Virus record (IMG/VR): IMGVR_UViG_3300017941_000006
Direction: 5' to 3' (one strand)
Origin: an uncultured virus (IMG/VR IMGVR_UViG_3300017941_000006)
Taxonomy: Duplodnaviria; Heunggongvirae; Uroviricota; Caudoviricetes
Length of the DNA: 64,000 nucleotides
Positions 134 through 27,865 of this stretch are shown one piece after another. The position numbers and the translations under genes are program-made. A model generated the notes under the pieces. That model made no database searches. It was not told the DNA's origin and saw only the letters and a list, made by a program, of their open reading frames with translations. Within the stretch, counting starts at the first letter, position 1. Every line of letters begins with the position of its first letter.

Positions 134-472
134 ATGAAAAAGAAACCAAAAAGTTTTTTAACCTTTGAAAGTTTTAGGGATAAGATAACTGTTATTTCAA
201 GCATCTTGCTTATATTTGGTATGCTATTTGCAGCATGGATGTTTCTCGATAATAGATATGCCCAAAAGAAAGTTGAACAGAAACTGGATTATGTAAAATA
301 TAGCCTGCAGTTTCAAATGAACAACGATAAGATTTCGACATTGATGTCTTTGTACCCAAAAATAGAAACTGCTGATCCAGTCGTAAAGCAGCAACTTCAA
401 ACTTATATGGATACAAAGTTAGAACTCGTCCGTAAGATGGAAGTTTTAGAAAAGTTGGGGATAGGTCTATAA
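134..472 (+). CDS. small membrane protein (single TM + helical C-terminus)
   Basis: Hydrophobic stretch ITVISSILLIFGMLFAAWMFL; stop overlaps the next start (TAATG). Confidence 0.6.
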   Translation: MKKKPKSFLTFESFRDKITVISSILLIFGMLFAAWMFLDNRYAQKKVEQKLDYVKYSLQFQMNNDKISTLMSLYPKIETADPVVKQQLQTYMDTKLELVRKMEVLEKLGIGL

Positions 473-3400
473 TGCCAAGGGTAAGGTTTGAACCTTTAAA
501 GATAACAACTCTCTACGAAGAGAAAGTTGCTCAAAGCGTTAAGGATCGCTATAAGAGTCACATTAATAGAGAATCCCTTCGTCTCGTAAGTAACATCACG
601 GATGACATGAGGGATAGGATTGCTGGATTAATGCACGAGGGTATTGACGAAGGTAGGTCAGTTAGTGCAACTGCCAGCACACTTCTTAAGACTGGTCTGG
701 ACAAAGGAGTTTTTAGATCGGCAAGACGAAGAGCCTATCTCATATCAAGAACTGAATTACATAGAGCAAGACAACAAGGAGCTTTTGATCTTTATAGAGC
801 AAATCATATTGATCTTGTTAAGTGGATTGCCATAGGAGATGAAAGAACATGCGATACGTGTGCACCCCGAAACAACCATGTTTATAGGCTTAGCGAGATA
901 GAGGGAGACTTACCGCCTATTCATCCAAGATGTAGGTGTAGAGTTGTGCCTTCAGATTTTCAACTCGAGATAAGTGTTAGACGTGATCGAAGAGGAAAGA
1001 TAATGGAAACAAGAATTTCTCCAACTCCTCAGAACTACAAATACTATGTGAGTCTTGACAGGAAGCCAAGAAGACGAGTTAAGAAGTCACTCGAGAAGGC
1101 TGTTTCAGTCAGAGCATTTACAAGGTACGTTCCAGGCAGAGGGTTTCAAAGATATAAACAGTTTCAAAGGGATGTAGCTGTTATTGATAAACCTGTTCCA
1201 AGGGATTTTTCATATGAGATAGCTAACTCTGGGGAAGATGTAGCAAATAAGATTGAGGAACGAAGAGAAGGAAAAGTTCGAGCTACTTATGCCGTTAATG
1301 CGGTTAGGGCTTGGAACATGGAAGCAAAAAATAAGTATCCTAACACTAATTATCTCGGTGACGTTGGCGTTAGAGAATGCTTACAAAATAGTTTGGATGC
1401 GGTCACAGAATCTTTAGAAAAAGGAGAGATAAAGAGGGGCAAGATCGAAATAGAACTTACTCCTCATAAAGAAAAGTACTCTGTCAAAGATAATGGAATA
1501 GGAATGTCCGATACAGACATTCGTGACAAGTTCCTTGCTCTTTACGGAACAGGGAAAGATATCAAAGGTAGATTCGGAGGATTTGGAATCGCTAAGGCTG
1601 TTATCTTGGCTCCTTCTGAAAGTTCACATTGGCAACTCAAAACAAGAGATAATTTCTTTGATGACAAGATGGCCTCTGCAAATGATCAGATTAAAGCCAT
1701 TCCAAAAATTCAAGGAACACAAATTGATGTTTGGGCAGGGGAGGATATTGTTAGCGAAGATGCCAAGAAATATGTGGAGACGACTGAAGTTCCTAAAAAT
1801 ATAGGTATAAGATTTAAGTGGGCACTTGATGATTGGGAAACTTTAAAGAATCCTTTTCTGAAATTAAAGAGTGAAGTAAGTCATACTACGGCAAAGGGTT
1901 CTGAAATAACAATGTCTTTCTTTCCAAGACCGCCATCGGAATACAGAAATCATATGATTTTGAGACTTGTTGACAAAAAGACCGGGGCTAAATTAACTCA
2001 GGCCATAAACCCTATATTTGGAGGTTTTAAAGGGGCTTTAGTTGTTGATATAGAAACAAGTGCAACCCCGGGCTCCGGTGGATATCCTCTTACCGATTCG
2101 AGAATGGGATTGAAGTGGGGAGAAGTTCAAGATTTTGTTAACACAGAAATAAGTCAAAGAACAAGAGAAAAGAAATCAGCTGAGCGAGTTGGTCAACAAG
2201 AGAAGTGGCTGGACTTACCGGAAGTTCCTGGCTGGAAAGATACTCTCGAGAGAATTAAAACAGATACAGGTTATGCATATCTTAAAGACACAATAGATAA
2301 AATTTGGCAAAAAGATTTTGTGTCGCAACATTTAAAAGGTATAGTATCAACAGATATAGGAGAACAACCTTTTACCTCTCTTGAAAATATAAAGATACTT
2401 AGGGATGTTGGCTTTAAAGGTTCGGATGGCGGGACTGTTGCTCAAGCAAAGTTGATGCTGGCATTTGAGTCTTTAGCTCAGATGTATTCACAAACTTTGC
2501 AAAAAGCTGGTATGCATTGTCCGTTGTTTGGATTTCATGCTCTGTTGTCTAAAGCTACATCGACCGGAGTGAGACTTGCACATTTTAGCAGACAAGAACA
2601 TACTTTAGGTTTGGATATTAAATCTTTTCCTAAGAGTGCTTTCGCAAGTCCGGTTAGTCTTGCCTTAGAAATGGTCAACACTATTCAGCATGAGTTCACT
2701 CATAATTGGAGGAGGGAACACGACGAAGGTTTCACTTCTCAACTTGGGCAAATACAAACGGTAACAGCGCCCTTATTTAATAGGGCTTTAGAGGTTGCAG
2801 GAGCGCTTCTCGGCAAGGATACCAGAATAACTATAGATACACCGCAAGGAATAGAAAAAATCAAGAGAAGCCATATTTGGACAATAGGAGAAAAACCAAA
2901 ACAGCCTGAATGGAGAGCAGAACTTTTTCAGTTGTACAAGGAGATAGGGGGAAAGTCAGGAGCGACTGCAGTTTACAAGATTGCTGAAAAATATAACATT
3001 CCAGAGAAACGTGTAAGAATGGTTCTTGCCGGATACAAAGCGGCACAAAGCCGAAAGGAGAAGAAAGATGTCACTAAATCCATTACAGAAAGCAGCGTTG
3101 GATTCCGAGGCCCCGAGAGAACAAGTCATCCAAGGTTTGTTATCCAACTTGATAAACGATTGCCTGATGAAAGCAGGGATCGATCCCAATGGGCCGATAG
3201 CAGGATCGATGCGGAAGCTGGGACAGGACGTTTGGGACTTGAGGGACGCTCTGGAAGAAGAGGGTTATTGGTAATAGAGAAAGCCAGATCTCACAAGTAT
3301 CTCAGAAAAATACCGAGAGGATCGGGAAGATATGAATATATCTATCAGAGACCAGATGTAGGTTTTCACGGAACCACTTCTAAGTTTTTAGAAACTATTC

Positions 3401-6400
3401 TTAAAGAAGGTTTAAGAAGTTCAAAAGATACCGGAGTTGCGTTGTATAGTGGAGAATCACAATTTGGCCCAAAAGCTAAGAGATATGGAGTTTATTTCGC
3501 AAAAACTCCGGAAAGAGCTTTTGGTATTGCTGAAGTGGCAACAAAAAAATTTGGTGGGAAGCCTGTAATTTTTATTGCTAAAGTTGATCCTAAAAAAGCA
3601 GAATCGGATGAAGATTTTGCAGTTGTCTTGGGTGATCTCTTTCGTGATATTTCTCGAGACAAACCTCCTCTTTTAACGGGTAATGAAATTAGGCAGCGTC
3701 TCAAGGATTATAAATTAAGCTATGGGGAGACCTATTATATACCGCAAGATACGCAATATAGATTGAATACGTTATCTGACGGAAAATTGGAACGTCTGTA
3801 CGATAATTGGCGGAAGGGAGGTTCTAAAGCGATAGATGAGGAGCTCACATCCAAAGATAGTTGGAAAATATTTGGGAGTGCTGCATTTCCTGGTGATAAG
3901 CCAGAAGATATCAGAGCTGCTATTTTTTGGGATTGGGCTGAACATAAATATACAAGAATAGGATCACCTTTTGAAAAGAAATTAGATAAAGCTTTAAGAA
4001 GGTTAAACTTAAGAGAAGTAACTAAACTTCCAGGGGCCCACGTTGTTGAAAATCCGGCCTTTATAAAAGCTTTAGAAGAGTTTGGATTCTTTGCGACATC
4101 TACCGGACTTTTGAAATCAGTTATGGGAGAAGATTTAAAGAAAGCCAGAAGCTATGTAAGATTCAGACATGGGAAGTATGAGCATGTTAAAGGATGGTCT
4201 GGAAAACCAAGATTATTTGATTTATCATCAGAGGACAAAATTCACCGTTATCTTCTTGACGCATCTTCCCCTGAAATAGAAAAAGCACTTCAAGTAGTTC
4301 AGGAAATACATGCTGTCGGTGGGCAAACTTTATTTATTGGAGGTTGCGTTAGAGATGCTTTGCTTGGCAAGAAGAGTAAAGATATCGATCTTGAAGTTTA
4401 CAATGTGAAACCGGAAGAAGTTCGAGCAATTCTTGACCGAGCCGGAAAAGTAGATCAGGTAGGAAAGAGTTTTGGAGTTTTTAAACTCTCTTTTCCCGGA
4501 ATGGAGGCTATTGATGTAGCCATTCCAAGAAGGGAAAGTAAAACTGGCAAAGGACATAAAGGATTTATGGTAGATCATGATCCTTCAATGACTTTCAAGG
4601 AAGCTGCGGGACGTAGAGATTTAACTATCAATGCTTTGGCATACAATCCTATAGAGGACAAGATAATTGATGAATATGGAGGCCTTCAGGACATTAAGGA
4701 CAAGATATTAAGAGCTACAAACCCAGAAACCTTTGGAGAAGATTCATTAAGAGTATTGCGAGTTATGAGATTCGCTGCCCAGTTAGAATTCTCTCCGGAT
4801 TTTAATCTTGCATGGCTTTGCAGGCAGATCGATCTGACCGATCTTCCAAAGGAGAGAATTTTTGGGGAAGTTGCTGGAATGCTTCTTAAAGCAAAGAGAC
4901 CAAGTATAGGATTAAGATTGATTCACATACTTGGAATTAATAAGATTCTCCCAGAGCTCGATGAACTTAAAGGAACAGAACAGGATGAGAAATGGCATCC
5001 TGAAGGGGATGTATGGGAGCACACATTATTGGCGGTAGACGAAGCCGCCAAGATGAAGAAGCAACTCGCAAATAATCAAGATAGACTGGTTTATATGCTT
5101 GGCGTCCTATGCCATGACATGGGAAAGCCAGAAACAACAGATGTTAATGAGGAGGGGAGAACAATCAGTCATGGGCATGACGAGATGGGAGCGAAGGTAG
5201 CTCAGGATTTTCTTGGAAGATTAACTGACGAGACAGATATTTTAGAAAGAGTTGAAGGTTTGGTAAGACATCACATGAGACCTACCTTCTTCTTTCATGA
5301 CAAGGTTCCGGATTCAGCTATTAGAAGACTTGCAAAGAAAGTCGATATTCCAATGCTCCTTATGGTATCGGCTGCCGATAAATCCGGTAGAGGGGATAAA
5401 GACATTGATCTAAGTGCCGAGAGATGGATGATGAGAAAGTTCAAGAATCTAAAACTCGCACATCCTGAAACTCTCGAGCCGAAAGTCATGGGAAGACATC
5501 TCATTCCATTAGGCATTAAACCTGGCCCGGAGATGGGAAGAATTCTAGACAAGATTTACAATGCTCAGCTGGAAGGTAAGTTTGAAACCACAGATGCTGG
5601 TTTGGAATATGCTAATCAGCAAGGATGGTTAAAGACAGAAGAAGATACTGTCATTAAAGCTGTTCCCGTTAAGAAACTTATAACAAGTAGAGGGAAAACT
5701 TTTCTCCATACTTACTATGAAAATAGAAGTGGCTTAGGCCCCGGATTTTTTGCAGGAGCCGAGCCTTTGGTTGTAAATAAAATGTCTTTCAAGCAAAGTG
5801 AGGATCAGAAAAGATGGGGAGAAGAAGTTGTTCTTGTTGATGTTTCTAAATTTGATGCTGAATGGAGTAAAGACGAAGGATTTTATATTTCTTCTTCTGG
5901 AAAGAATGAGATTAGCAATAGGAGAGAAAAATTCCAAGAGTTTCTCAAAACTGGAAAGCCTATTATAATGCCTTCGGTCTCTGTAAGAGATATCGGATCG
6001 AGGGGTCTTATAGGTTTTACAAATGGAAGACATAGATTTGCAGTTCTCAGAGATATGGGCTTTACAGAAATTCCTGTATCTGTGGATGCGAAATCTGCGA
6101 AGATGGCAAAGGAACTCTTTAAAGCCCCAAGTTTAAAGGAGAAACTGGAAGCGCAAAATTACTGGTGGAAAACCGTTGCCGGAGGAATCGAAAGCAAGTA
6201 TGAGGGGGTTAAAATAGTTTACGCAGGAAAGAAGACATCTGAAGGGTTTACCCATACTTATGCAGATGAGCAGTTCCAAGATGCAATAGATATGATTCCG
6301 GAAGAGCATAGGAAGCTTATTGATTCAGTGATTCTTGAGCCTGGGAGTGTATTGGGTGAAGATGGCAAAGCTGAATTTGGTCGTGTTTTTGAAGGAACAA

Positions 6401-7164
6401 GTTCTATTCACATATACCGTGGGGTTCAACTTCATGAGTATGGAACCAGTTTTGAAGAACAGTTTGCCCACGAAGTGGGACATTTGGTAGCACGAAAAGT
6501 GTTTGGAAGCATAGAAGCTGAGAAGTGGGGCGATGTTATTAAAGGAGAGAATCCTGTTTCTCATAGAGGTAGAGAAAATGCTGCAGAAGATTTTGCAGAA
6601 ACTTATTCTCTTTATCTTAATGATGAATTAAATAAGGATGATTATCCACAGAGATATAAAGCAATAAAGAATATAGTAGATAGGGCAAGGAAGCCCAGAA
6701 AAGTTTCAAAATTAAAATGGGAAGTCAAAGATTTGAAAGATGAGTTTGAAGAGAAGACTCCTTTGCTTCATACTACTTATGACAGATTAGCTGCAGGTGG
6801 GAAAGCTAAATATACTTCGAAGCCAAGTCCTGAAGCTGAAGCCGCTTTGAAAAAATTATTTGGGAAGGGTATGGTGATAGATATGGTAAAATCCAGAAAG
6901 AAGATAGTTGAAATGAAAAAATCCAGACTCGAGAATAAGTTTGTGCCTCACAAGATAGATGGAAAAGTTTCATGGGTTAAAGTTAAACATGGAGGCATGC
7001 TTGTTAAGAGTGCTAAACTTATCCAAGTCGGACAAGAGATTTTAGCCAAGTCTGGTTTAGCTACAATAACTGCGGTCGGGAAAGATGGAGTTACGGCAAG
7101 AACATCTAAAGGAGATAAAATACTTCTCCTTATGAAAGATGTTCTACCTTATGTAAGAGGATAA
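472..7164 (+). CDS. MuF (SPP1 gp7-like) head morphogenesis protein fused to multiple effector domains (polyvalent protein)
   Basis: MuF: RRAYLISRTELHRA, DERTCDTC, PPIHPRCRC. GHKL ATPase: ECLQNSLDA, DNGIGMS, GGFGIA, GTQI. Zincin HEFTH..EH. ART/Tpt1-like FHGT...ILKEGL...VYFA. Class II CCA/poly(A) nucleotidyltransferase GGCVRD, DIDLE, RRDLTINA, EDSLRVLR plus HD domain (HPEGDVWEHT, CHDMGKP). ParB/Srx-like NGRHR. Second zincin HEVGH...EDFAE. Confidence 0.9.
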   Translation: MPRVRFEPLKITTLYEEKVAQSVKDRYKSHINRESLRLVSNITDDMRDRIAGLMHEGIDEGRSVSATASTLLKTGLDKGVFRSARRRAYLISRTELHRARQQGAFDLYRANHIDLVKWIAIGDERTCDTCAPRNNHVYRLSEIEGDLPPIHPRCRCRVVPSDFQLEISVRRDRRGKIMETRISPTPQNYKYYVSLDRKPRRRVKKSLEKAVSVRAFTRYVPGRGFQRYKQFQRDVAVIDKPVPRDFSYEIANSGEDVANKIEERREGKVRATYAVNAVRAWNMEAKNKYPNTNYLGDVGVRECLQNSLDAVTESLEKGEIKRGKIEIELTPHKEKYSVKDNGIGMSDTDIRDKFLALYGTGKDIKGRFGGFGIAKAVILAPSESSHWQLKTRDNFFDDKMASANDQIKAIPKIQGTQIDVWAGEDIVSEDAKKYVETTEVPKNIGIRFKWALDDWETLKNPFLKLKSEVSHTTAKGSEITMSFFPRPPSEYRNHMILRLVDKKTGAKLTQAINPIFGGFKGALVVDIETSATPGSGGYPLTDSRMGLKWGEVQDFVNTEISQRTREKKSAERVGQQEKWLDLPEVPGWKDTLERIKTDTGYAYLKDTIDKIWQKDFVSQHLKGIVSTDIGEQPFTSLENIKILRDVGFKGSDGGTVAQAKLMLAFESLAQMYSQTLQKAGMHCPLFGFHALLSKATSTGVRLAHFSRQEHTLGLDIKSFPKSAFASPVSLALEMVNTIQHEFTHNWRREHDEGFTSQLGQIQTVTAPLFNRALEVAGALLGKDTRITIDTPQGIEKIKRSHIWTIGEKPKQPEWRAELFQLYKEIGGKSGATAVYKIAEKYNIPEKRVRMVLAGYKAAQSRKEKKDVTKSITESSVGFRGPERTSHPRFVIQLDKRLPDESRDRSQWADSRIDAEAGTGRLGLEGRSGRRGLLVIEKARSHKYLRKIPRGSGRYEYIYQRPDVGFHGTTSKFLETILKEGLRSSKDTGVALYSGESQFGPKAKRYGVYFAKTPERAFGIAEVATKKFGGKPVIFIAKVDPKKAESDEDFAVVLGDLFRDISRDKPPLLTGNEIRQRLKDYKLSYGETYYIPQDTQYRLNTLSDGKLERLYDNWRKGGSKAIDEELTSKDSWKIFGSAAFPGDKPEDIRAAIFWDWAEHKYTRIGSPFEKKLDKALRRLNLREVTKLPGAHVVENPAFIKALEEFGFFATSTGLLKSVMGEDLKKARSYVRFRHGKYEHVKGWSGKPRLFDLSSEDKIHRYLLDASSPEIEKALQVVQEIHAVGGQTLFIGGCVRDALLGKKSKDIDLEVYNVKPEEVRAILDRAGKVDQVGKSFGVFKLSFPGMEAIDVAIPRRESKTGKGHKGFMVDHDPSMTFKEAAGRRDLTINALAYNPIEDKIIDEYGGLQDIKDKILRATNPETFGEDSLRVLRVMRFAAQLEFSPDFNLAWLCRQIDLTDLPKERIFGEVAGMLLKAKRPSIGLRLIHILGINKILPELDELKGTEQDEKWHPEGDVWEHTLLAVDEAAKMKKQLANNQDRLVYMLGVLCHDMGKPETTDVNEEGRTISHGHDEMGAKVAQDFLGRLTDETDILERVEGLVRHHMRPTFFFHDKVPDSAIRRLAKKVDIPMLLMVSAADKSGRGDKDIDLSAERWMMRKFKNLKLAHPETLEPKVMGRHLIPLGIKPGPEMGRILDKIYNAQLEGKFETTDAGLEYANQQGWLKTEEDTVIKAVPVKKLITSRGKTFLHTYYENRSGLGPGFFAGAEPLVVNKMSFKQSEDQKRWGEEVVLVDVSKFDAEWSKDEGFYISSSGKNEISNRREKFQEFLKTGKPIIMPSVSVRDIGSRGLIGFTNGRHRFAVLRDMGFTEIPVSVDAKSAKMAKELFKAPSLKEKLEAQNYWWKTVAGGIESKYEGVKIVYAGKKTSEGFTHTYADEQFQDAIDMIPEEHRKLIDSVILEPGSVLGEDGKAEFGRVFEGTSSIHIYRGVQLHEYGTSFEEQFAHEVGHLVARKVFGSIEAEKWGDVIKGENPVSHRGRENAAEDFAETYSLYLNDELNKDDYPQRYKAIKNIVDRARKPRKVSKLKWEVKDLKDEFEEKTPLLHTTYDRLAAGGKAKYTSKPSPEAEAALKKLFGKGMVIDMVKSRKKIVEMKKSRLENKFVPHKIDGKVSWVKVKHGGMLVKSAKLIQVGQEILAKSGLATITAVGKDGVTARTSKGDKILLLMKDVLPYVRG

Positions 7165-7165
7165 A

Positions 7166-7378
7166 ATGGTAGACTGCCCAAAGTGCGGGAATACGATTGT
7201 AAAATCATATCCCGGCAATAAAGTAAAATTAAGGACTAACATAATTATATGGGAGTCTGGTGGAAAGGCCTTTTGCAAATGCAACAAGTGTCACGAGGAA
7301 GTTTGCATCCCTGTGTCTATTGAATTACCTACTGGAAAAAAATTAGGCCACGTAATTATTCAAGGAAAGAAAAAATAA
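7166..7378 (+). CDS. small zinc-ribbon protein
   Basis: CPKC...CKCNKC. Confidence 0.65.
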   Translation: MVDCPKCGNTIVKSYPGNKVKLRTNIIIWESGGKAFCKCNKCHEEVCIPVSIELPTGKKLGHVIIQGKKK

Positions 7379-7417
7379 TGATCATCATTGTGTTATATTT
7401 ATTAGAGATTTCATCTT

Positions 7418-7438
7418 GCCCTTTAAGTAGGGCTTTTT
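7418..7438 (+). terminator. possible intrinsic terminator
   Basis: gccct-ttaagt-agggc followed by ttttt. Confidence 0.4.
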
Positions 7439-7771
7439 GTGCTTATGAAAACAGAAATATTGAGAGGACGTAGATACAATATCTATCCCGATCGGCCTAA
7501 GAAGTGCCCGTTTTGTGGATATAGGATAGTATGGTCGAACGCAGATAGATGGAAATGTGGAAAATGCTATAAGAGCTGGGGCAAGAAAACTTTTCCAAGA
7601 CGCAAAGATTTAGGAGATCGTCCAAAGTGCTTATGCGGGGCTTCAAATCCTATATCGGAAGGAGTAAACTGGTTATGTACTGAATGCGGACGGCATTGGC
7701 TGAAGATTTATAGAATAGAAAAACAACTTACCCAAAGGGAGGTTTTAAGCGCTCAAGTTTTTGAAATATGA
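7439..7771 (+). CDS. tandem zinc-ribbon protein
   Basis: CPFC..CGKC and CLC..CTEC; each unit has a W-x-C motif. Confidence 0.65.
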   Translation: MLMKTEILRGRRYNIYPDRPKKCPFCGYRIVWSNADRWKCGKCYKSWGKKTFPRRKDLGDRPKCLCGASNPISEGVNWLCTECGRHWLKIYRIEKQLTQREVLSAQVFEI

Positions 7772-8103
7772 TTATCTACAAAGCTAAGAAGAAGTTATCC
7801 AAAGCTTTAAAAGGAAAGCCTAAATCTGAGGAGATGAAGAGAAAGATATCTGACTTTTTTAAGGGTAAATCTCTTTCGGAAGAGTTAAAGAAAAAGATGA
7901 GTGAAGCTCATATGGGCAAGCCTTGGAGTGAATTCAGAAAAGTTAGTTACTATCGTCATTCAGAAGCGACAAAGAAAAAGTTATCCGATGCCATTAAAGG
8001 AAAATGTTGTTCTGAAGGAGCAAAGAGAAAAGTGTCCGAATTTTGGGCAAAAAGGAGAAGAACCCAATGCGAAAATCGAAATCTGACAGTGGTTTGGAAA
8101 TGA
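7768..8103 (+). CDS. NUMOD3-motif DNA-binding protein (no nuclease domain seen)
   Basis: Repeated KGK-x-x-SEE-x-K-(R/K)K-(I/M)S units and HSEATKKKLS. Confidence 0.7.
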   Translation: MIIYKAKKKLSKALKGKPKSEEMKRKISDFFKGKSLSEELKKKMSEAHMGKPWSEFRKVSYYRHSEATKKKLSDAIKGKCCSEGAKRKVSEFWAKRRRTQCENRNLTVVWK

Positions 8104-8951
8104 TTAAAAGCTTTAAAATCAAGGAGTTACGAAAGTTTTTTGTAAGACGTATTGCAGCAGTTGGGGATTTACATTTGATGTCGAGGTATTCATTATTTCC
8201 TCCGGAGTTTGAGACAGAACAAGGAAATATATTTAAAGCAAGTCCGGGGCAACAACAAATATGGGAATCTTATCAAAACTTTCTTCATGTTTGTGATGAA
8301 TGGGAGGTCGATACAGTTCTTGTTGCATCTGATTTGGTTCATGGACAGAATGCAAAAGAAAGAGGAATGGGTCTGATAAGCACAAACATGAATGAACAAA
8401 TTCAGTTAGCAGAGCTAACTTTGAGGCCTCTCCTTAAAGGAAGGGAGTCTCACTGGGTTAGTGGATCGGGATACCATAACTCTGTTCAGGGAATGTATGT
8501 TGAAGAAGAACTTTGCACGAAGTTGGGAAAGGAGAAGGACATAACTACAAATTGGTATGGCACCGTAGCAAACTTAAAGGTTAAGCCTTTCGATAAGATA
8601 ATCAATTTAACTCACGGTGGTGGAAGAGCGATGTATTATCGAGAGACATTGGCTGCCAGAGAAATCATTTATGGTAAGGTAGCAGAAGTTAATCAAAAAC
8701 TTCCAAGAATTGATATGTATGTTCATGGTCACTTCCATTGGTATTGCTACATGCATCAAGGGAATGTCCATCATTTACAATTACCAGGATTTACTGCTTA
8801 TGAACCGGTTCCGATATTCACCCCTTCTTACACAAGGGCCCAGCCAGACATTGGGGGAGCTCTAATTATGTTTGATCAGAGCGGAAGAATCACGGTTTGG
8901 CACTTCTTGTATCCTCTTCCTCATATTAGCGATGAGGTGACAGGGATTTAA
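8043..8951 (+). CDS. calcineurin-like metallophosphoesterase
   Basis: GDLH, SDLVHG, GSGYH, THG, HGHFH motifs; real start may be ATG at 8100. Confidence 0.75.
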   Translation: MGKKEKNPMRKSKSDSGLEMIKSFKIKELRKFFVRRIAAVGDLHLMSRYSLFPPEFETEQGNIFKASPGQQQIWESYQNFLHVCDEWEVDTVLVASDLVHGQNAKERGMGLISTNMNEQIQLAELTLRPLLKGRESHWVSGSGYHNSVQGMYVEEELCTKLGKEKDITTNWYGTVANLKVKPFDKIINLTHGGGRAMYYRETLAAREIIYGKVAEVNQKLPRIDMYVHGHFHWYCYMHQGNVHHLQLPGFTAYEPVPIFTPSYTRAQPDIGGALIMFDQSGRITVWHFLYPLPHISDEVTGI

Positions 8952-19593: not shown

Positions 19594-20514
19594 ATGGAAA
19601 AACTTTACACCAGCACTACAGCTAAATTGCTTCACAATCTACATCGATTGATCGAGATAAAGAACGGAGTTTTCAGGCCTATATCTGTTCAATTTGCTCC
19701 GACTGATAAGTGCAATCTGGATTGCGATTTTTGCTCTGTTAAAAATCGGGAAGGTGATGAGATAGAAATTGGAGATGCTAAGAAAGCTGTTTTTGATTTT
19801 AAAAATTTAGGGGCCAAGACAATCGAATTTACAGGCGGAGGAGAACCCACTTTATATAAAGGGATTAATGAGCTCATTTTGTATTCTCACAATTTGATGT
19901 ATAGGATAGGATTTATAACTAATGGGATCAAACTTTCCAAGATTGTGGATGAGAATCTGGATAGGCTCGATTGGCTTAGAATTAGTTTGAACAGCCTGGA
20001 CTATGTCAAAGATATAGATGTCCCTAAAATAAAAGGCACTTTGGGATTTAGCTACGTCATAAATGATAGGACAACGGAAAAGACTTTCGAGAAGATCAAG
20101 CAATACAAAGAAAAATATGAAGCGACTTATGTTCGGATAGTTCCGAACTGTTTATCGGTAGACACAATAGAGGAGTCCAGGAAGAAAGCCGAGAACTTAT
20201 TGAATCAATCAAAGGGATTCTTTTTTCAGTCTAAAAAATATGATGTTCCGAAGAGATGCTGGATCGGATATCTGAAACCTTTTATAGCTCCGGATGGTTA
20301 TGTCTATGCGTGTTCTGCAAATCCGTTGATAGCAAGAAAGTTTGATCCAAGATTTAGAATAGGTCACATCTCTAATGTTAGGGAGATTTACGACCGTAAA
20401 GTTTTTATACCTTTCGATACTTCGGTATGCCAGAAAGGCAAATGTTTTTTCAAAGAGCATAATGATCTAATCGAAGACCTACTTTGCGAAATAGAACATG
20501 AGGATTTCATATAA
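19594..20514 (+). CDS. radical SAM protein with Twitch/SPASM-like C-terminus
   Basis: CNLDCDFC, TGGGEPTL, CWIG...DGYVYAC. Confidence 0.88.
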   Translation: MEKLYTSTTAKLLHNLHRLIEIKNGVFRPISVQFAPTDKCNLDCDFCSVKNREGDEIEIGDAKKAVFDFKNLGAKTIEFTGGGEPTLYKGINELILYSHNLMYRIGFITNGIKLSKIVDENLDRLDWLRISLNSLDYVKDIDVPKIKGTLGFSYVINDRTTEKTFEKIKQYKEKYEATYVRIVPNCLSVDTIEESRKKAENLLNQSKGFFFQSKKYDVPKRCWIGYLKPFIAPDGYVYACSANPLIARKFDPRFRIGHISNVREIYDRKVFIPFDTSVCQKGKCFFKEHNDLIEDLLCEIEHEDFI

Positions 20515-21164
20515 TGGATTATAGTGAGGAAGGAGCATTTTTAGTAAATTTCTTTAAAGAGCATCCTGCTAAATACAAGTTCTTGGTAGATGTCGGGGCT
20601 TTTACTACGGATGGTTCTAATACCCTTAATTTACTCGAGCTTGGATGGTCGGGACTTCTCATAGAACCTATGCCAATAGAAAAGTATTACAGACCCTTGG
20701 TTGAAGCTTTAAAAGGAAATGATAAAGTTAAATTTTGCAATTTAGCAATTTCGGATTTTTGCGGAACAGCTGAAGGTTTTGAATACTATGACGGTGAAGG
20801 CGCCCTGGCTGGTCATAGTTCGATGATGAATGAAACATATGATACAGGTGCTCAGAAGATGGTTGTTCGCATACCAAAGAAGAAGTTTTTGTTAACTGTT
20901 TCTACATTGCCTAAAGTTCTTGAAGACTATAATGTTCCCCTTGATTTTGATGTTCTTTCTGTGGATGCGGAGGGAATGGATTTTAGGATTCTTAAGCATC
21001 TTTTTTTAAAAAGCAGCTATCGTCCAAAGATTATAGTAGTTGAATGGGGGAAAGATTTTCCCCATCTTCAAGATTGGGAAACTCTGGAATCCGATGATTC
21101 AATTTTTGATGGATATGAACTTCTGCTTCAAACACAAGGCAATAGAATAATTTTGAGGAAGTAG
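20514..21164 (+). CDS. FkbM-family methyltransferase
   Basis: VDVGA..GSNT, GWSGLLIEP, DVLSVDAEGMD, RPKIIVVE. Confidence 0.85.
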   Translation: MDYSEEGAFLVNFFKEHPAKYKFLVDVGAFTTDGSNTLNLLELGWSGLLIEPMPIEKYYRPLVEALKGNDKVKFCNLAISDFCGTAEGFEYYDGEGALAGHSSMMNETYDTGAQKMVVRIPKKKFLLTVSTLPKVLEDYNVPLDFDVLSVDAEGMDFRILKHLFLKSSYRPKIIVVEWGKDFPHLQDWETLESDDSIFDGYELLLQTQGNRIILRK

Positions 21165-21171
21165 AGCCGGG

Positions 21172-21912
21172 ATGATTCCTCTTTTTTCGTCATTGCTTTT
21201 AGAAACATTTTCACTTTGTAACCGTCGGTGCACAACCTGTATTCGGAATTCTGATCCGGATCGTAAAGCATGGGAACCGTGGTTTGTTCCAAACGAACTT
21301 CCGATGGAGACAATAGTCTCTATTCTGCAGCAAGCTTTTGATCTGGGTTTCAGAGGAGAGGTATCTTTGATAGCAAATAATGAACCGCTTCTTGATAAAA
21401 GACTTCCAGAAATTGTTCGACTTGTAAAAGAAATGGGATTAATTCCCGAAGTTTTTTCAAATGGAGATTTCTTAACTAAAGAATTGGCGGCTAAATTGGA
21501 TGGAGTATTAAATCATTTTGGCATTGCCTTATATGACAAAAAAACCCGAGAGTCAAGAAAACAATGGATCAGTACCCTTTTCTCTAAAACACTTGTCTCT
21601 TTTAGCCATGGGCATGTAATTAATCATTTCCAAAGAGAAATGCCAAATCCAATAGATGCTCCATGTTCAGACTTGTTGGCAAGATGTATAATCAATCATC
21701 GTGGGGATGCAAATCTGTGCTGCGAAGATGGAATAGGCAGATTTAATTTAGGGAATATTTTTAACATGTCACTTTCTGATCTCTGGTTTTCTGAGAAACG
21801 AAAGGTTTTGTTTGAAATCCTCTCCAAACCAGGCGGACGTAAATTTCATCCGTATTGTGCGATACCACGAATGGAAAATATGGAGAGTATCGAAGAAGTA
21901 GAACACACATAA
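21172..21912 (+). CDS. radical SAM protein with Twitch/SPASM-like C-terminus
   Basis: CNRRCTTC, NEPLLD, SNGDFL, PC...GDANLCCED...LGNI. Confidence 0.85.
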   Translation: MIPLFSSLLLETFSLCNRRCTTCIRNSDPDRKAWEPWFVPNELPMETIVSILQQAFDLGFRGEVSLIANNEPLLDKRLPEIVRLVKEMGLIPEVFSNGDFLTKELAAKLDGVLNHFGIALYDKKTRESRKQWISTLFSKTLVSFSHGHVINHFQREMPNPIDAPCSDLLARCIINHRGDANLCCEDGIGRFNLGNIFNMSLSDLWFSEKRKVLFEILSKPGGRKFHPYCAIPRMENMESIEEVEHT

Positions 21913-21946
21913 ACTCGTGGTAATAGAATAGTTGCGAAGAAATAGT

Positions 21947-22534
21947 ATGAATTTTGAAAAAGATTATTTTGTAAATAGTAAGATAAGCAACTACAAGGAC
22001 TACCGAGCTAAGAAGTTCGAGAGCTTGGCTCAAGACCTTCTGGAATATCTTGCACCCAAAGTTATTGACTTCGGTTGTGCAACCGGTGGATTGATTTATG
22101 TTTTGAAGAAGCTTGGCGTTGATTGCGAAGGCACAGATATCAGCCATTGGGCAATCGAATACGGCAAGGAGTTTTATGGGCTCGAGAAAGAACTGAAGTA
22201 TTATACCAGGGACATTTTAACTACAGCAAAAGGATTGACAGTTCTTTTCCTTGATACTCTTGAACATATGCCTATTTATGAGATAGAATTCTTGCTTTCT
22301 ATTCTTAAAAAGGTTAAGCCTAAAAATGTGATTGTCAGAATTCCTGTGTCCGAGAAAGAGGGAGAAGATTTTGTTTTAGAAGTGAGTAGAAACGATAAGA
22401 CCCATATAAATGTTCACTCGAAAAAGTGGTGGGAAAAACTATTTAAAAAACATGGATTTATATGGAAGAGCAGTTTAAGAGGTAAAACAATTTACGATTC
22501 TGAGGGGGTTATGGCAGGAGTGTTTGTAATATGA
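21947..22534 (+). CDS. class I SAM-dependent methyltransferase
   Basis: VIDFGCATG, GTDIS, DTLEH, DKTHINV; start taken as ATG at 21947. Confidence 0.82.
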   Translation: MNFEKDYFVNSKISNYKDYRAKKFESLAQDLLEYLAPKVIDFGCATGGLIYVLKKLGVDCEGTDISHWAIEYGKEFYGLEKELKYYTRDILTTAKGLTVLFLDTLEHMPIYEIEFLLSILKKVKPKNVIVRIPVSEKEGEDFVLEVSRNDKTHINVHSKKWWEKLFKKHGFIWKSSLRGKTIYDSEGVMAGVFVI

Positions 22535-23571
22535 GAGATTTAAGAATCTTAGTTACGTCTGCGGGCGGCCCATCTTTTCCCGGTGCTTTAAAGGGTTTAA
22601 AGGAGAATGGCGAACGATCTATTGATGTCATTGCCGTAGATGCAAGTCCGGAATCTTCGGGCGGTAGAATGCCGGATGTTGAGAAGTTTTATACTGTCCC
22701 TTTAGCTAAAGATCGGTACTATCTTGATGAGCTTTTTAAAATAGTAGACAAGGAAAAAATCGATGCCATCATTCCTTTAAGTACAGCTGAGAGTATTGTA
22801 TTATCCGAGAATCAAGATCATGTTCCTGTTATGGTTTCTGATAGTCCTCAAATTAAGGATGTAACAGATAAATATTGGCTTTATTCTAAAATTCACCAAG
22901 AGTTAGGGATACAACCGATTGCTCATGCTCGGACAGATTTCAGACATTTGCCAGAGTATATAAAAGCTCTTGGCTATCCGGATAAAATTTTATGTGTAAA
23001 ACCTATTAATGGAGAAGGAACTCGGGGTTTCTATATTCTTGATAACCACGCCGATACCATTGTTCAATATTACCAAAGCAAACACGTTAATAGGATGACT
23101 TATGCACAGTTTATGGTTCTTTTCCCCGGAAGATCCCAACAAATTTTATTGATGGAATATATAGAAGGGATAGAATACTCTGTTGATGTTCTAATAAAAG
23201 ACTGCAACGTCATCGCAACACGTATCAGGCGTCGGGACAAAGTAGTAAATGGAGTTTCTATCATTGGAACTATTATAGATAGGCCTGATATTCATGAGAT
23301 GAGTATACGTCTCGCAGAGCATTTTAAATTGAACTTTTGTGTTGGAATTCAGTTTATTGAATCTCTTGGGAATTTATATCTGTTAGAAATTAACCCCAGG
23401 CTTCAAAGTGGAGTCACATTAGCCATTGAAGCAGGAGTCAATTTTCCATATTTAGGTCTTAAAATTTTACTAAAAGAACCTTTTGAATATTACGATTTTA
23501 ATTCTTCTATTAGAATTTTTGATGGTCTAAAGATGTATCGTTACTGGAAGGATGCCTATGTTCCAAGATAA
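22531..23571 (+). CDS. ATP-grasp domain protein
   Basis: ILVTSAGG, DKY, VKPINGEGTRG, MEYIEGIEYSVD, LLEINPR. Confidence 0.85.
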   Translation: MRDLRILVTSAGGPSFPGALKGLKENGERSIDVIAVDASPESSGGRMPDVEKFYTVPLAKDRYYLDELFKIVDKEKIDAIIPLSTAESIVLSENQDHVPVMVSDSPQIKDVTDKYWLYSKIHQELGIQPIAHARTDFRHLPEYIKALGYPDKILCVKPINGEGTRGFYILDNHADTIVQYYQSKHVNRMTYAQFMVLFPGRSQQILLMEYIEGIEYSVDVLIKDCNVIATRIRRRDKVVNGVSIIGTIIDRPDIHEMSIRLAEHFKLNFCVGIQFIESLGNLYLLEINPRLQSGVTLAIEAGVNFPYLGLKILLKEPFEYYDFNSSIRIFDGLKMYRYWKDAYVPR

Positions 23572-24178
23572 AAATATATTGGCTATCGGGGCCCATCCTG
23601 ATGACATAGAATGGGGGGCTCTGGGGACTTTGCTAAAGTACCGAAACGTAAGTAAAATATACTGTTTTATATCTTCGTTAGGAAGAGGCGGAGATCCGAT
23701 TGATCCGATACTAAGAAAAGAAGAGACAGAGAATACCTTTTCGGCCCTTTGTCCGGAGGAAATAATCTGGCAAGAGAAAAAGATTCCCGATCCTCCTTAT
23801 CATGAGAACGTAAAGCTTCTGGATGACTTGATAGGATATCGGAACATTGATGTGATTTTCACCCCGAGTCACCACGATGCTCATCAAGATCATAGATTAA
23901 TAAATGAGATCACTCTTACAGCTTGCAGACGTAGTTTAATAACTGTATTATGTTATGCTACCCCGGGTACTACTCTTGATTTTAATCCACGACTATTTTC
24001 TGATATAACAGATTTTTTTGAAGCTAAGTGTAGAGCCATGACAAACCATGCTTCGCAAAAGTATAAATTTTATCTTTCAAGAAATTGTTTAGAATCCATG
24101 CACTCTGATACTTACGCATTTATGTGTGGGAAGAAAGCATGGGTTGAAAGGTTTGAAATCGAGAAATGTTTTATTTAA
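23552..24178 (+). CDS. PIG-L/LmbE-family N-acetyl-sugar deacetylase
   Basis: AHPDDIE and DAHQDH motifs. Confidence 0.88.
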   Translation: MPMFQDKNILAIGAHPDDIEWGALGTLLKYRNVSKIYCFISSLGRGGDPIDPILRKEETENTFSALCPEEIIWQEKKIPDPPYHENVKLLDDLIGYRNIDVIFTPSHHDAHQDHRLINEITLTACRRSLITVLCYATPGTTLDFNPRLFSDITDFFEAKCRAMTNHASQKYKFYLSRNCLESMHSDTYAFMCGKKAWVERFEIEKCFI

Positions 24179-24205
24179 AACTTGAAGCAATAAGGAGACT
24201 GTATA

Positions 24206-24766
24206 ATGGGAAATGTTTTTGAGGTGCTTGGTGAGAGAACTATAAACGGAGAATCAGACTACTTTTCTAATAGGCTTGTTCTGGAACGATGTGAGAATAT
24301 CCATTTACATTACCGTAACGCCAGAATAGAGCTATCAAATAGGGAGTTTATAGAGTTGTTCTGTACTTTCACAGAGGCCTTCAGAACTTTTCAAAAATAT
24401 ATCTTAGCAAATTCTTTAATTGGATGTGTTAATCTTGAGGATATCGATCCCTTTGATGGCGGACACAAGCAGGAAGGAGATTATTTTGATTGTGGGAAGG
24501 AGCAAGATGATCATATAAAGGGAATTGATTATGCAAAAAGTATTATTTTAGAGGGTAAGGATATACTTCCTATTGCTGTCTATCGTTGTGAGGGGGATAA
24601 ATTTAAAAGACTCGATGGCTTCAAGCGCTATTGGGCGTACAAAGAATTAGGAAAGCCTAACATTATGTGTTATATTCTTCAGGAGTGGTTGCCAGGAATC
24701 CAACATGAGCTACCTATGTGGTTTGAAGCCGGAGTATCCAAAATAGCAGAAGGGCCGATGAAATGA
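24206..24766 (+). CDS. protein with C-terminal ParB/Srx-like domain
   Basis: ILPIAV...RLDGFKRYWAYKELG. Confidence 0.6.
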   Translation: MGNVFEVLGERTINGESDYFSNRLVLERCENIHLHYRNARIELSNREFIELFCTFTEAFRTFQKYILANSLIGCVNLEDIDPFDGGHKQEGDYFDCGKEQDDHIKGIDYAKSIILEGKDILPIAVYRCEGDKFKRLDGFKRYWAYKELGKPNIMCYILQEWLPGIQHELPMWFEAGVSKIAEGPMK

Positions 24767-25326
24767 CAGCCAGAAAAAAGTTGAAAATACAAGAGTTGGT
24801 AAAACAAAGAGCGGTAGAAGATCTTCCGATTAAACTTCATCTTGGATGCGGTGATCAACATTTGGATGGATGGATTAACTCTGATTACTACGATTTAAGA
24901 GTTGCCGATGTTCAAGTAGATGCTTCAAAGATACCACTTCCAGATAATAGTGTAGATGAAATTTATGCTTCTCACTTAATCGAACACTTTGATTTTCATC
25001 AAGGTTGGACGCTTTTGGGGGAATGGCATAGAGTGTTGAAGAAGAGTGGAAAATTAACTCTCGAGACCCCTGATCTTTTAGGATTATGTCAAGAGTTTCC
25101 AAAGGCAGATACGAATGGAAAAGTAATGCTTTATGGAGCTTTCTTTGGCTTCCCATGGTATGAGGGGAATGGGCATAAGTTTCTTTATACTGAAGTTCAA
25201 TTGTTTTGGACTTTATCGAAAGTTGGATTTACAAATATCCTAAGAGTTAAACCAGATTCAATTTATGCCAGGTCGGCTCCACAGTTCGAATCTACGTTTT
25301 TGAAAGTTGAGTCATATAAAAAATAA
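24763..25326 (+). CDS. class I SAM methyltransferase-like protein
   Basis: LHLGCG, DNSVDEIYASHLIEH, EWHRVLK..G..TPD. Confidence 0.82.
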   Translation: MTARKKLKIQELVKQRAVEDLPIKLHLGCGDQHLDGWINSDYYDLRVADVQVDASKIPLPDNSVDEIYASHLIEHFDFHQGWTLLGEWHRVLKKSGKLTLETPDLLGLCQEFPKADTNGKVMLYGAFFGFPWYEGNGHKFLYTEVQLFWTLSKVGFTNILRVKPDSIYARSAPQFESTFLKVESYKK

Positions 25327-25366
25327 GAACTATTTTTTGTTTAATAATATGAGAAGGGAGGATAAC

Positions 25367-26284
25367 ATGAAAACTTTAGAGGAACTTAAGAAAGATGGTT
25401 TAAAAATTCTTAGAAGTAAAGAAACAAAACTTAACAAAGAGGCTTCTTTATTGAAGTTTATTGATTCAGTCTACAATAATGGAGCTACTTTGGAAAGAAA
25501 CTTTCCCATCGGCGGCTATGAAAAGAAAGGGGAATACACACTTGGAAAAGCCCCGAAGAAAGAACTTCCGATTGTGGACGTAATAACACCTGTATTTAAT
25601 GCTGATTGGATTCTTCAAAAAACTTTAAATGCTCTTTTGGATCAGACATATGTAAATTGGCGTCTTTGGGTTGTTAATGACGGCTCTATTGATAAAAGTC
25701 TTGATATGATTTGGGCTTTTGCTCAGAATGCTGGACTTGATAGAGTTAAAATCTTTGATGGCCCTAACCAGGGAGTTAGTAGTGCCCGGAACTATGCCAG
25801 ACAGATGCTCTTTAGTGGGGTTGCAACACCAGGCGACTATGTGGCTTTCATGGATGCCGATGATGTCTGGGATCCAAAGCACCTTGAAGAGTCTGTTAAG
25901 CATCTTCAAGGCACACCACGTTTAAAGATAGATTTCATGTATAGTGATGTGGATTGTGTGTTTCCCGATGGTTCCCAAGCTTTCCCTTATGGCATAGCAT
26001 ACCATGAGGTCTTAGACATTACAAAACTTCCTGTTGAAAATCCTATCTATACATCCACGGTTGTATGCAAGATGGACGTTTTGAAAGAGGTAGGAGAATT
26101 CGATGGGAGAATTAACGGAAGAGAAGACCATGATTACTGGTGTCGTGTTGCCAAGGCCGGATTTAAGATGAGTCACTTAAGGAAGACACTTACCACATAT
26201 ACAGTTAATCCTGGAGGAGTGGCAGGGACATGGAATGAAGAGAAGGCTAAAATTTTTAAACAGAAGAGGGAAGATGAAGAATGA
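25367..26284 (+). CDS. GT2-family glycosyltransferase
   Basis: VITPVFN, VNDGSID, NQGVSSARN, FMDADD, EDHDYW; start taken as ATG at 25367 after SD ggagg. Confidence 0.88.
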   Translation: MKTLEELKKDGLKILRSKETKLNKEASLLKFIDSVYNNGATLERNFPIGGYEKKGEYTLGKAPKKELPIVDVITPVFNADWILQKTLNALLDQTYVNWRLWVVNDGSIDKSLDMIWAFAQNAGLDRVKIFDGPNQGVSSARNYARQMLFSGVATPGDYVAFMDADDVWDPKHLEESVKHLQGTPRLKIDFMYSDVDCVFPDGSQAFPYGIAYHEVLDITKLPVENPIYTSTVVCKMDVLKEVGEFDGRINGREDHDYWCRVAKAGFKMSHLRKTLTTYTVNPGGVAGTWNEEKAKIFKQKREDEE

Positions 26285-26463
26285 GATGTGATGATTGCCT
26301 ACAATTTATTACTCAATGGGATAGTCATGTTGTTCCCAAGAACTTCTTTTGCGAACGACCGAAAGGTCATAAGGGAAAACATCGTTACAAAGGGAAAGTA
26401 GGGATTTCATATGTTCAAGATCAGAGTTTTAGCATTGAATGGGAGAAAATAAAGAAGAGATGA
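26281..26463 (+). CDS. small Cys/His protein
   Basis: CDDC...CERPKGHKGKH; overlapping start/stop. Confidence 0.5.
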   Translation: MRCDDCLQFITQWDSHVVPKNFFCERPKGHKGKHRYKGKVGISYVQDQSFSIEWEKIKKR

Positions 26464-26942
26464 CGAAATCATGCGGATGTGATGCAGCTTGTTATGGATA
26501 CGGGGCTGACTATGCTCGAGATGAGAAAGACGAGAGGGAACAGAGTCATCAACGTTCGGGCGTTGCAGGGGTCTCTGGATTTACTGGCTTTTCCGGCTTT
26601 TCCGGAGTATACCCAGCAGAATTGGAAATCATGAACGCTCCTGAACCGAAGCCTCCGGAGATTGTCCTTGATACTTTAGTTCTTTGTAACCACAAGTTTG
26701 AGGACTTCCCTTGGGCTGGTCAACATCCTTTAAGTGGGAGAATTTATAAAGTTACTGCCGTTGACCAAGTCAGAGAGGGTAGCGTGTTGTTTCTTGGTCT
26801 TGAAGGTGTAAACAATGGAAGACCAGGATGGAATGCGGTTTACTTCATTCCTATTAAAGACACCCAGGAGAAACCTGAAGTTGAGAAGCCTTTACGAAGA
26901 GTTATAAGATGTGAGGAAGAAGACAATGGAAGTAATACCTAA
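26439..26942 (+). CDS. hypothetical protein with a short Gly-X-Ser tract
   Basis: SGVAGVSGFTGFSGFSGVY. Confidence 0.55.
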   Translation: MGENKEEMTKSCGCDAACYGYGADYARDEKDEREQSHQRSGVAGVSGFTGFSGFSGVYPAELEIMNAPEPKPPEIVLDTLVLCNHKFEDFPWAGQHPLSGRIYKVTAVDQVREGSVLFLGLEGVNNGRPGWNAVYFIPIKDTQEKPEVEKPLRRVIRCEEEDNGSNT

Positions 26943-27159
26943 TGGAATGGTAAATTGGGATGCCGATTGGAGTAACTGTTACCAAGTATTTCCCAAAAAA
27001 GGTAAGATGCGCTGGTGTCAAGCATGTTTTGAATATCATGATCTTGCTTGCTTCTTCCATTTCCGTGGGGGTATGATGGGTTGCATGTTGAATAAGTCTT
27101 GCAGAAGTAAAGCTATGGCAAAGATCAAAGGACAGGGAGGTATAGGTGCGAAGAAGTAA
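26911..27159 (+). CDS. small Cys-rich hypothetical protein
   Basis: CQAC...C...C...C. Confidence 0.45.
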   Translation: MRKKTMEVIPNGMVNWDADWSNCYQVFPKKGKMRWCQACFEYHDLACFFHFRGGMMGCMLNKSCRSKAMAKIKGQGGIGAKK

Positions 27160-27367
27160 GAGTAAATTCAGATGTAAGCTCTGTGGATTTTTTACTAAGG
27201 AACTTCATAATTGTGTCTTAACATATGAAGACATAGGGATAAATATACTCTTGTGTCATAGATGTTTACGAAGACTTGGGTGGAGAAGACTAAACAAAGG
27301 GGAAAGAGCAAGTGAATCCTTGGGGCATTTAGAGTCTCCCACAGGGCCTCACTTCGGAGCTCATTAA
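27146..27367 (+). CDS. small zinc-finger protein
   Basis: CKLC...CHRC; SD ggagg before GTG. Confidence 0.5.
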   Translation: MRRSKSKFRCKLCGFFTKELHNCVLTYEDIGINILLCHRCLRRLGWRRLNKGERASESLGHLESPTGPHFGAH

Positions 27368-27383
27368 TGAGAGGGGTTAAACT

Positions 27384-27779: not shown

Positions 27780-27785
27780 CCTAAG

Positions 27786-27815
27786 ACGTAAAAACCATGT
27801 CTTAAAGACATCTTC
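27786..27815. promoter_or_regulatory. operator-like element, copy 1 (ATGTCT-N3-AGACAT palindrome)
   Basis: 28/30 identical to 52208-52237; both copies intergenic. Confidence 0.6.
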
Positions 27816-27865
27816 ATCCTCTTTTCATAAGAGGATAAGGAAAGATCGCTGCATAGGGTTAAAAG

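Follow-up and report, generated by a model that had tools for sequence, protein, structure and literature searches.

In the paper that defines the polyvalent proteins of phages and conjugative elements (Iyer et al. 2017; PMC5512222), injection is predicted for these proteins, and ADP-ribosyltransferases (ARTs) are given as the commonest protein-modifying domain that they carry. Domains of the 2H or ART type that are fused to MuF have been treated as head-packaged, and injection has been predicted for MuF-fused effectors, in one of two later surveys by these authors, from 2021 and 2022 (PMC9503650). Free-standing phage CCA enzymes and KptA are treated as RNA-repair genes in the other of these surveys, where the phage CCA enzyme is read as repairing tRNA ends (PMC7824862). 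Defenses described recently that attack the tRNA 3′ end include tail cleavage by Cas12a3 (PMC12851939) and pyrophosphorylation of the tRNA CCA end by CapRel/toxSAS (PMC9712102; 10.1101/2021.04.30.441581). Here we analyzed a 64,000-nucleotide (nt) stretch of DNA from an uncultured virus of the Caudoviricetes (IMG/VR record IMGVR_UViG_3300017941_000006), hereafter called the window, in which a single open reading frame (ORF) of 2230 amino acids (aa) on the + strand (472..7164; P0001) encodes a MuF-anchored polyvalent head protein. Domain scans placed all of the modules described below in this ORF; the giant head protein comprises about 10 of them, two of which are an ART domain and a CCA-type nucleotidyltransferase with an HD domain (CCA-HD). 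We consider it reasonably probable that this protein of an uncultured myovirus carries its CCA-HD enzyme into the cell as a packaged means of tRNA-end repair and that the ART is an independent accessory.

P0001 combines a MuF/gp7 domain with at least two unrelated effector domains, is encoded among head genes, and is in this sense a MuF-polyvalent protein. It shares with the MuF-anchored polyvalent proteins of Iyer et al. 2017 the many unrelated enzymes in one polypeptide, the MuF N terminus, the head-gene neighborhood, the presence of ART, zincin-peptidase-like, and ParB-like modules, and the mosaic swapping among relatives. In contrast, the Pol-beta nucleotidyltransferases described in that paper are minimal and belong to firmicute conjugative elements (PMC5512222), whereas the enzyme encoded here is a full class II CCA-HD that is conserved in its lineage. 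Literature searches, which did not extend to the online tables of domain architectures of Iyer et al. 2017, turned up no report of a MuF polyvalent protein that contains a CCA enzyme, and the main text of Iyer et al. 2017 does not mention “CCA,” “Tpt1,” or “KptA” (PMC5512222).

The CCA-HD module and its relatives

The CCA-HD module was identified at aa 1286–1711 (4327..5604, + strand) using Pfam, PHROG, NCBIfam, and motif searches. Its PolyA_pol head (PF01743; aa 1288–1414) was matched with an E-value (E) of 4e-23 and 82.5 bits against a cut-off of 23, and its HD domain (PF01966; aa 1514–1605) with 38.7 bits against a cut-off of 22 (TIGR00277 HDIG, 30.7 versus 27.6), while phrog_2244, a tRNA nucleotidyltransferase family, covered aa 1286–1695 (E 2e-72). 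A C-terminal tRNA_NucTran2_2 region (aa 1659–1711) was detected below the threshold (20.9 bits versus 27). The motifs of the head (GGCVRD at 1290, DIDLEV at 1304, RRD at 1381, and EDSLR at 1423) and of the HD side (H1509, CHD at 1547, HGHDE at 1567, RHH at 1599, and AADKSGR at 1634) were all intact; RRD and EDxxR are CCA-specific head motifs. The best NCBIfam models were NF008137 (multifunctional CCA addition/repair; E 1e-51) and TIGR02692 (actinobacterial CCA; E 2.5e-50). The module resembles the E. coli–type CCA-adding enzyme represented by NF008137 in having GGxVRD, DxD, RRD, and EDxxR together with an HD/HDIG domain, and differs from it in being a single module within a head protein of 2230 aa and in falling under every equivalog cut-off. 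Within a collection of phage proteins, the CCA part was at most 38.5% identical to its matches; the top match was located in a free-standing ORF of 449 aa, and the matches that carried an annotation were tRNA nucleotidyltransferase genes. These results indicate that the module is, as judged from its sequence, an HD-containing CCA-type enzyme of class II, and the Pfam, PHROG, and motif data thereby uphold what a sequence-only reading of this DNA had claimed about the enzyme and its intact catalytic motifs.

Addition of CCA, of CC only, of A only, or of poly(A) cannot be told apart, as the sequence alone does not separate these activities; the DxD-to-RRD spacing is about as long as in the solved CCA-adding enzyme 6ibp and is non-discriminating. 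One alternative is that the CCA-HD module does not repair tRNA and instead tails other RNAs, with poly(A) or CC marking host RNA for decay, or that its HD domain breaks down nucleotide immune signals, as anti-CBASS or anti-CRISPR ring nucleases do. The head domain is indeed common to poly(A) polymerases, the pcnB model TIGR01942 matched with an E of 5e-32, solved relatives are deposited as poly(A) polymerase, and Acb1-like 2H phosphoesterases, which Iyer et al. read as signal-degrading (PMC5512222, PMC9503650), co-occur in 7–8 of the 30 long CCA-bearing proteins described below. Nevertheless, both of the best family models given above are those of CCA enzymes and have lower E-values than pcnB, RRD and EDxxR are intact, and the tRNA_NucTran2_2 region is present, albeit below the threshold. 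We regard a tailing or signal-degrading function as quite unlikely.

A related CCA module was found in 30 long proteins of 1226–3903 aa, including P0001 itself. In a BLASTP comparison, the CCA-HD modules of 15 relatives were 50–70% identical to that of P0001, and among these 15 proteins the MuF head (50–62% identity) was retained in 11 and the C-terminal domain in 12. The intervening modules behaved differently: the GHKL, both peptidase-like, and the helix-turn-helix segments of P0001 matched nothing in the 15 relatives, and its ParB-like (GRHRF) module matched only P0073 among them. The module just upstream of CCA was a 2H phosphoesterase in P0054, P0068, P0069, and P0070, ART-PolyVal in P0002 and P0010, MuF itself in P0065, P0053, and P0028, PBECR2 in P0071, and InPase in P0023. 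A P0001-type ART was present in only one of the 15 relatives (P0002, aa ∼303–406), two modules away from CCA; the pairwise match there had an E of 0.002 over an alignment that includes the linker, and the tyrosine of GVYFA was replaced. The same type of ART was also detected in P0016, which lacks CCA and has a 2H domain, and in P0003, which has PBECR5. Together, these comparisons of sequence relatives indicate that CCA-HD is the lineage-conserved cargo and that the ART is an exchangeable accessory; the recurrent partner of CCA, if any, would be the 2H esterase, the commonest module just before it. Conserved amid swapped neighbors, CCA-HD is the module to prioritize, which corrects the idea of the ART as its partner.

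Some relatives carry further variations of this module. CCA-HD is interrupted in P0068 (aa ∼985–1303) by an insertion with subthreshold Intein_splicing and DUF559 matches and in P0070 (aa ∼804–845) by a LAGLIDADG_3 insertion, and both insertions (intein or homing endonuclease) separate the nucleotidyltransferase head from the HD domain. In the giant proteins P0080, P0082, and P0088, an AAA_33 P-loop kinase-like domain is fused directly N-terminal to the CCA head, a recurrent neighbor that hints at RNA-end chemistry.

No tRNA genes were found in the 64-kb window. In an overlapping viral record of 76 kb (G002), the first 40 bases of the window lie at position 54,612, adding ∼54.6 kb of upstream sequence, and this stretch contains two tRNA genes, Ile-TAT and Gln-TTG, each with a gene-encoded CCA. 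Since both phage tRNA genes already encode CCA, the phage enzyme is not needed to mature its own tRNAs, and we infer that the role of CCA-HD is tRNA repair rather than maturation.

The N terminus of P0001 bears the MuF/SPP1 gp7 minor-head domain (aa 50–158; 619..945, + strand), which was detected using Pfam (Phage_Mu_F, E 4e-12, 47.2 bits versus a cut-off of 29.6), NCBIfam (TIGR01641 phageSPP1_gp7, 47.9 bits versus 39.65), and PHROG (phrog_115 minor head protein and many minor-head or head-morphogenesis families), and which BLASTP found in 12 other proteins with 50–62% identity. The window represents the structural half of a myovirus, with head-maturation protease, scaffold, and major head protein genes downstream of the big ORF, followed later by sheath, tube chaperone, and baseplate genes; the upstream stretch of G002 contains the large terminase and portal genes, the latter ∼15 kb upstream of the big ORF. 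The big ORF is therefore located in the head-gene block, between the portal and the protease/scaffold/major-head genes. Because of this location and the MuF/SPP1-gp7 N terminus, it is reasonable to infer that the head protein is delivered with the virion.

Alternatively, the MuF head could serve assembly only, with the enzyme modules acting late in the producing cell or being trimmed. The product of the protease gene just downstream could remove the modules, and no cultured relative of the lineage was found. Against this, MuF, CCA-HD, and the C-terminal domain are conserved together in 11–12 of the 15 relatives, which points to one traveling unit, and injection is predicted for MuF-fused effectors in PMC9503650. 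We think it unlikely that delivery does not occur.

In our preferred reading, independent enzyme modules would be strung between short basic linker motifs in a protein that is packaged in the capsid by means of its MuF head and reaches the cell together with the DNA. Ahead of all phage gene expression, CCA-HD would then heal and rebuild tRNA 3′ ends that had been damaged, with end phosphates stripped by the HD domain and C, C, and A re-added by the nucleotidyltransferase. The ART would most likely ADP-ribosylate a host macromolecule (a protein or a nucleic-acid end) with NAD+, independently of the CCA enzyme. Packaged repair of tRNA 3′ ends is plausible, and, if true, a repair enzyme arriving with the DNA would act before expression, a counter-defense logic unlike that of spare tRNAs.

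The ART domain and its relation to Tpt1/KptA

The ART domain bears no family name and occupies aa ∼955–1160 (3334..3951, + strand). Its FHGT motif (aa 965–968; nt 3364–3375) is followed by TSKFLETILKEGL, and it contains H966, Y1008, D1046-E1047-D1048, and a helical insert at aa ∼1047–1125. We searched 1.84 billion representative proteins with HMMER using aa 900–1280 as the query and obtained 59 matches, 52 of which matched best on the ART part, six on the stretch immediately preceding the CCA head, and one on the linker. A Pfam scan that covered 39 of the 59 proteins gave PARP at E ≤ 0.01 in 17, with one reaching the cut-off, and no family in 14; weak Tpt1 matches on the ART part were seen in two (P0004 and P0029), and the passing PTS_2-RNA match of P0032 fell on a separate C-terminal domain. 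In a 41-sequence family alignment, the H, G, and T, the Y of GVYFA (aa 1008), and D-E-D (aa 1046–1048) were each conserved in at least 90% of rows, and a variable helical insert separated D-E-D from the last strands; the catalytic-type residues H, Y, and D-E-D are all present in the P0001 copy.

The ART domain had no passing Pfam match and no PHROG match. Its best Pfam match, PTS_2-RNA (PF01885), fell short of the cut-off of 26 bits with scores of 15.3 and 17.1 and covered profile positions 90–135 or 99–135 of 177 (P0001 aa 954–996, E 0.021). When the family alignment was used as a profile, the best solved sequences were Tpt1 chains (6e3a, E 7.4e-6), over ∼40 residues, and a homologue search with this profile returned only seven proteins, none with a name. 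Language-model neighbors of the ART, to be taken as leads only, were viral hypothetical proteins and the Tox-ART-HYD1 and Arr (Arr-ms) clusters, the latter two with scores of 0.91–0.92. These results suggest that the ART belongs to an uncharacterized, mostly phage-borne H-Y-(D-E-D) family.

The AlphaFold model of the P0001 ART had a predicted local distance difference test score (pLDDT) of 72.5. Foldseek gave weak matches for this model with Tpt1 on top (best E 5.8e-3), and VIA gave Z 7.8–8.7 for Tpt1/KptA NAD lobes and at most 6.7 for other ARTs, the best match being residues 88–177 of an 8tfi chain (Z 8.7, root-mean-square deviation 2.3 Å, 83 residues). P0008, a minimal family member of 131 aa, was modeled with a pLDDT of 88.6, and an unbiased comparison of this model with 48,161 chains, made without Foldseek, ranked TkoKptA first (9ld3_A residues 91–180, Z 10.2), followed by Arr (8.3), TreX (8.0), Runella Tpt1 (7.2), DarT1 (7.2), and PARP13 (7.0). 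Almost all matches listed in that comparison were ARTs, as were all those listed by Foldseek for P0008, which found 34 at E ≤ 1e-3. Since H966 lies in modeled strand 23–30 and Y1008 in strand 67–71 (model numbering), the models predict an ART-superfamily fold whose first strand carries the His and whose second strand carries the Tyr.

The resemblance of the FHGT region to the NAD lobe of Tpt1/KptA, as claimed previously, is thus supported by the best structural match and by motifs conserved in at least 90% of the family. The ART shares with Tpt1/KptA this NAD-binding lobe as its closest solved fold (Z 8.7–10.2, 19–26% identity) and the common opening motif hYHGT...I.K.GL.P, and differs in having no RNA lobe, Y at the second position (GVYFA), an extra near-invariant D-E-D, and a helical insert. 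The ∼20 residues preceding HGT in P0001 are the linker motif, and free-standing family members begin only ∼10–25 residues before HGT, so that the N-terminal RNA lobe is missing. This lobe holds three of the four residues of the Tpt1 catalytic tetrad, Arg-His-Arg-Arg, and Tpt1 is not known to have the acidic D-E-D motif. An assignment of the ART to Tpt1 was rejected because only the C-terminal lobe was matched (chain residues ∼86–182), the RNA lobe is missing, and the Pfam score (15–17 bits versus 26) is below the cut-off; the H-Y-(D-E-D) make-up also departs from that assignment, which the sequence-only reading had raised as possible. We also rejected ART-PolyVal (PF18760), for which searches found no match on P0001 (E ≤ 1) or on the isolated domain (E ≤ 5); alignment of the ART family with the ART-PolyVal–bearing P0011 using hhalign gave a probability of 0.3, and the ART is hence not a member of the ART-PolyVal family of Iyer et al. 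2017. The small H-Y-D ARTs Arr and the Rhs toxin TreX resemble the ART in their compact fold and similar size (Z 8.3 and 8.0 for P0008), but have no significant sequence match to it.

We next considered whether the ART and CCA-HD form a packaged tRNA-repair pair in which the ART, as a Tpt1/KptA-like NAD-dependent phosphotransferase, cleans RNA-end phosphates. The span to which this pair had been ascribed, 3361–5640, lies entirely within the ORF at 472..7164, with 5640 just past the CCA-HD module. The two domains are real and consecutive, separated by ∼130 residues (from the ART end at aa ∼1160 to the CCA head start at aa 1288) with a linker motif in between, but they are modules of a single polypeptide and not two adjacent genes. 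Consistent with a pair, Tpt1/KptA NAD lobes rank first structurally (Z 8.7 and 10.2) and with the family profile, PTS_2-RNA is the best Pfam match of the ART, although below the threshold, and relatives bear other RNA-end enzymes next to CCA, namely 2H phosphoesterases, PBECR RNases, and AAA_33 kinase-like domains; the P0001-type ART itself shares a protein with PBECR5 (P0003) or 2H (P0016). Conversely, all Tpt1 matches are limited to the C-terminal lobe, the near-invariant acidic D-E-D is typical of acceptor-activating transferases, and the ART is adjacent to CCA in P0001 only, versus 15 close relatives, with other modules separating the two in the single relative that has both. Moreover, 45 of the 52 ART-type matches were proteins of at most 511 aa without a CCA module.

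The genomic surroundings of free-standing ART homologues also bear on this pair. A locus search with the ART domain of the window returned nothing beyond two copies of 100% identity (L002 and L003), and one with P0013 alone gave 13 pattern matches and no relative, while a 12-row alignment retrieved 13 free-standing relatives from 14 pattern matches, on large phage contigs. We scanned 89 ORFs around 11 of these 13 loci, with at most eight neighbors per locus, omitting L013, which nearly duplicates L012, and L019, which the contig end truncates. The homologues, none of which matched a PHROG, were found amid replication and nucleotide genes, with no recurrent neighbor and no RNA ligase, CCA, or other RNA-repair gene among the genes scanned. 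The idea of a tRNA-repair pair did not hold up in these comparisons, and we consider it decidedly unlikely.

The ART family may represent an unassigned branch of NAD-using enzymes whose nearest fold is KptA/Tpt1 without the RNA lobe. A more far-reaching proposal, to which we give little credence, is that this whole myovirus lineage preloads its capsids with a CCA/HD enzyme that would, in the first minute of infection, counter defenses acting on tRNA 3′ ends (Cas12a3, CapRel/toxSAS) and that the ART is a new family derived from the KptA lobe, which would have lost the RNA lobe and would ADP-ribosylate phosphorylated nucleic-acid ends or a defense protein in trans.

Linker motifs and counterevidence

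A short, strongly basic motif, (L)EKAR(P/S)Y(I/V)RxRRGK(F/Y)EHVKGY or KARSHKYIRR..G.Y.Y, precedes modules. A hidden Markov model (HMM) of this linker located copies in P0001 at aa 935, 1218, and 1726: copy 1 (aa 935–966; 3274..3369, + strand), IEKARSHKYLRKIPRGSGRYEYIY, directly before the ART; copy 2 (aa 1218–1249; 4123..4218, + strand) directly before the CCA module; and copy 3 (aa 1726–1758; 5647..5745, + strand). Copies 1 and 3 were themselves HMM seeds. In proteins that were not used as seeds, the linker was detected just before the CCA head in P0010, P0023, P0028, P0053, P0054, P0066, and P0071 (E 1e-8 to 1e-14); it was also found there in P0002, likewise not a seed, and in P0067, which was one. 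The copy before the ART was modeled as a β-hairpin with a moderate pLDDT of 52–62. Because no significant DNA repeats were detected within the ORF, the similarity of the linkers exists at the protein level only. Possible roles of the linker are those of a cut site, a DNA-binding hairpin, or a boundary between modules.

Several results run counter to our preferred reading of a packaged CCA-HD repair enzyme with an independent ART. First, the CCA-HD module missed the CCA equivalog cut-offs (176 bits versus 451 and 171.5 versus 438.8). Second, its best solved sequence was 3wfo, deposited as a poly(A) polymerase and aligned across the whole module including HD (E 1e-24), with bona fide CCA enzymes ranking below it in the list of solved sequences; we take 3wfo to be the Aquifex CC-adding enzyme. 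Third, the linker HMM was partly seeded from P0001, and its three copies in this protein match by construction. Fourth, the modeled D-E-D follows strand 92–99 (P0001) or 94–96 (P0008), which is the third or fourth strand, and stands before a helix, compared with the strand-5 position of the acidic catalytic residue in ARTs of the H-Y-[E/D/Q] clade. Fifth, the nearest fold of the ART is still Tpt1/KptA, an RNA-end enzyme, and an RNA-end role is possible. Finally, close cultured phages were lacking, with MuF identity reaching at most 33% among 202 matching phage records.

Other modules and neighboring genes

Between the MuF domain and the ART, P0001 contains a GHKL-type ATPase module (aa 300–378; 1369..1605, + strand; Pfam HATPase_c_3, 28.4–31 bits versus a cut-off of 25) and an HEFTH motif (aa 740–744; 2689..2703, + strand), possibly marking a zincin-type metallopeptidase module, for which the indication is weak (WLM, below the threshold, E 0.03–0.08). 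Downstream of CCA-HD, a module recognized by its GRHRF motif (aa 1755–1890; 5734..6141, + strand) is possibly ParB/Srx-like, which we presume from the motif; its only Pfam match was PFIN, below the threshold (E 0.021), a sequence search of solved structures found no relative, and its counterpart in P0073 is 51% identical and also located downstream of CCA-HD. This is followed by a zincin-type metallopeptidase-like module (aa ∼1961–2062; 6352..6657, + strand) with HEVGH at aa 2000, which matched Pfam ATLF with an E of 6e-4 and 20 bits, under the cut-off of 27.4. The protein ends in a conserved C-terminal domain (aa 2075–2230; 6694..7161, + strand), which BLASTP matched to the C termini of 12 of the 15 CCA-HD relatives and also to P0016. 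P0001 had no match among the PADLOC defense models.

Just past the polyvalent gene, the window contains two small zinc-ribbon-like ORFs and a homing-endonuclease-like fragment (7166–8103), ahead of a calcineurin-like metallophosphoesterase (8043–8951; Pfam Metallophos, 24.8 bits versus a cut-off of 21.5). Radical-SAM, methyltransferase, glycosyltransferase, and dCMP-deaminase-like genes are scattered among the structural genes at 19594–30967 and 37558–38919 and may constitute a DNA- or virion-modification block. In addition, a PurZ-like gene (phrog_1211, E 3e-61) was found in G002 (L006:1106–2323), ∼53 kb upstream of the window, suggesting that the phage DNA may carry 2-aminoadenine in place of adenine.

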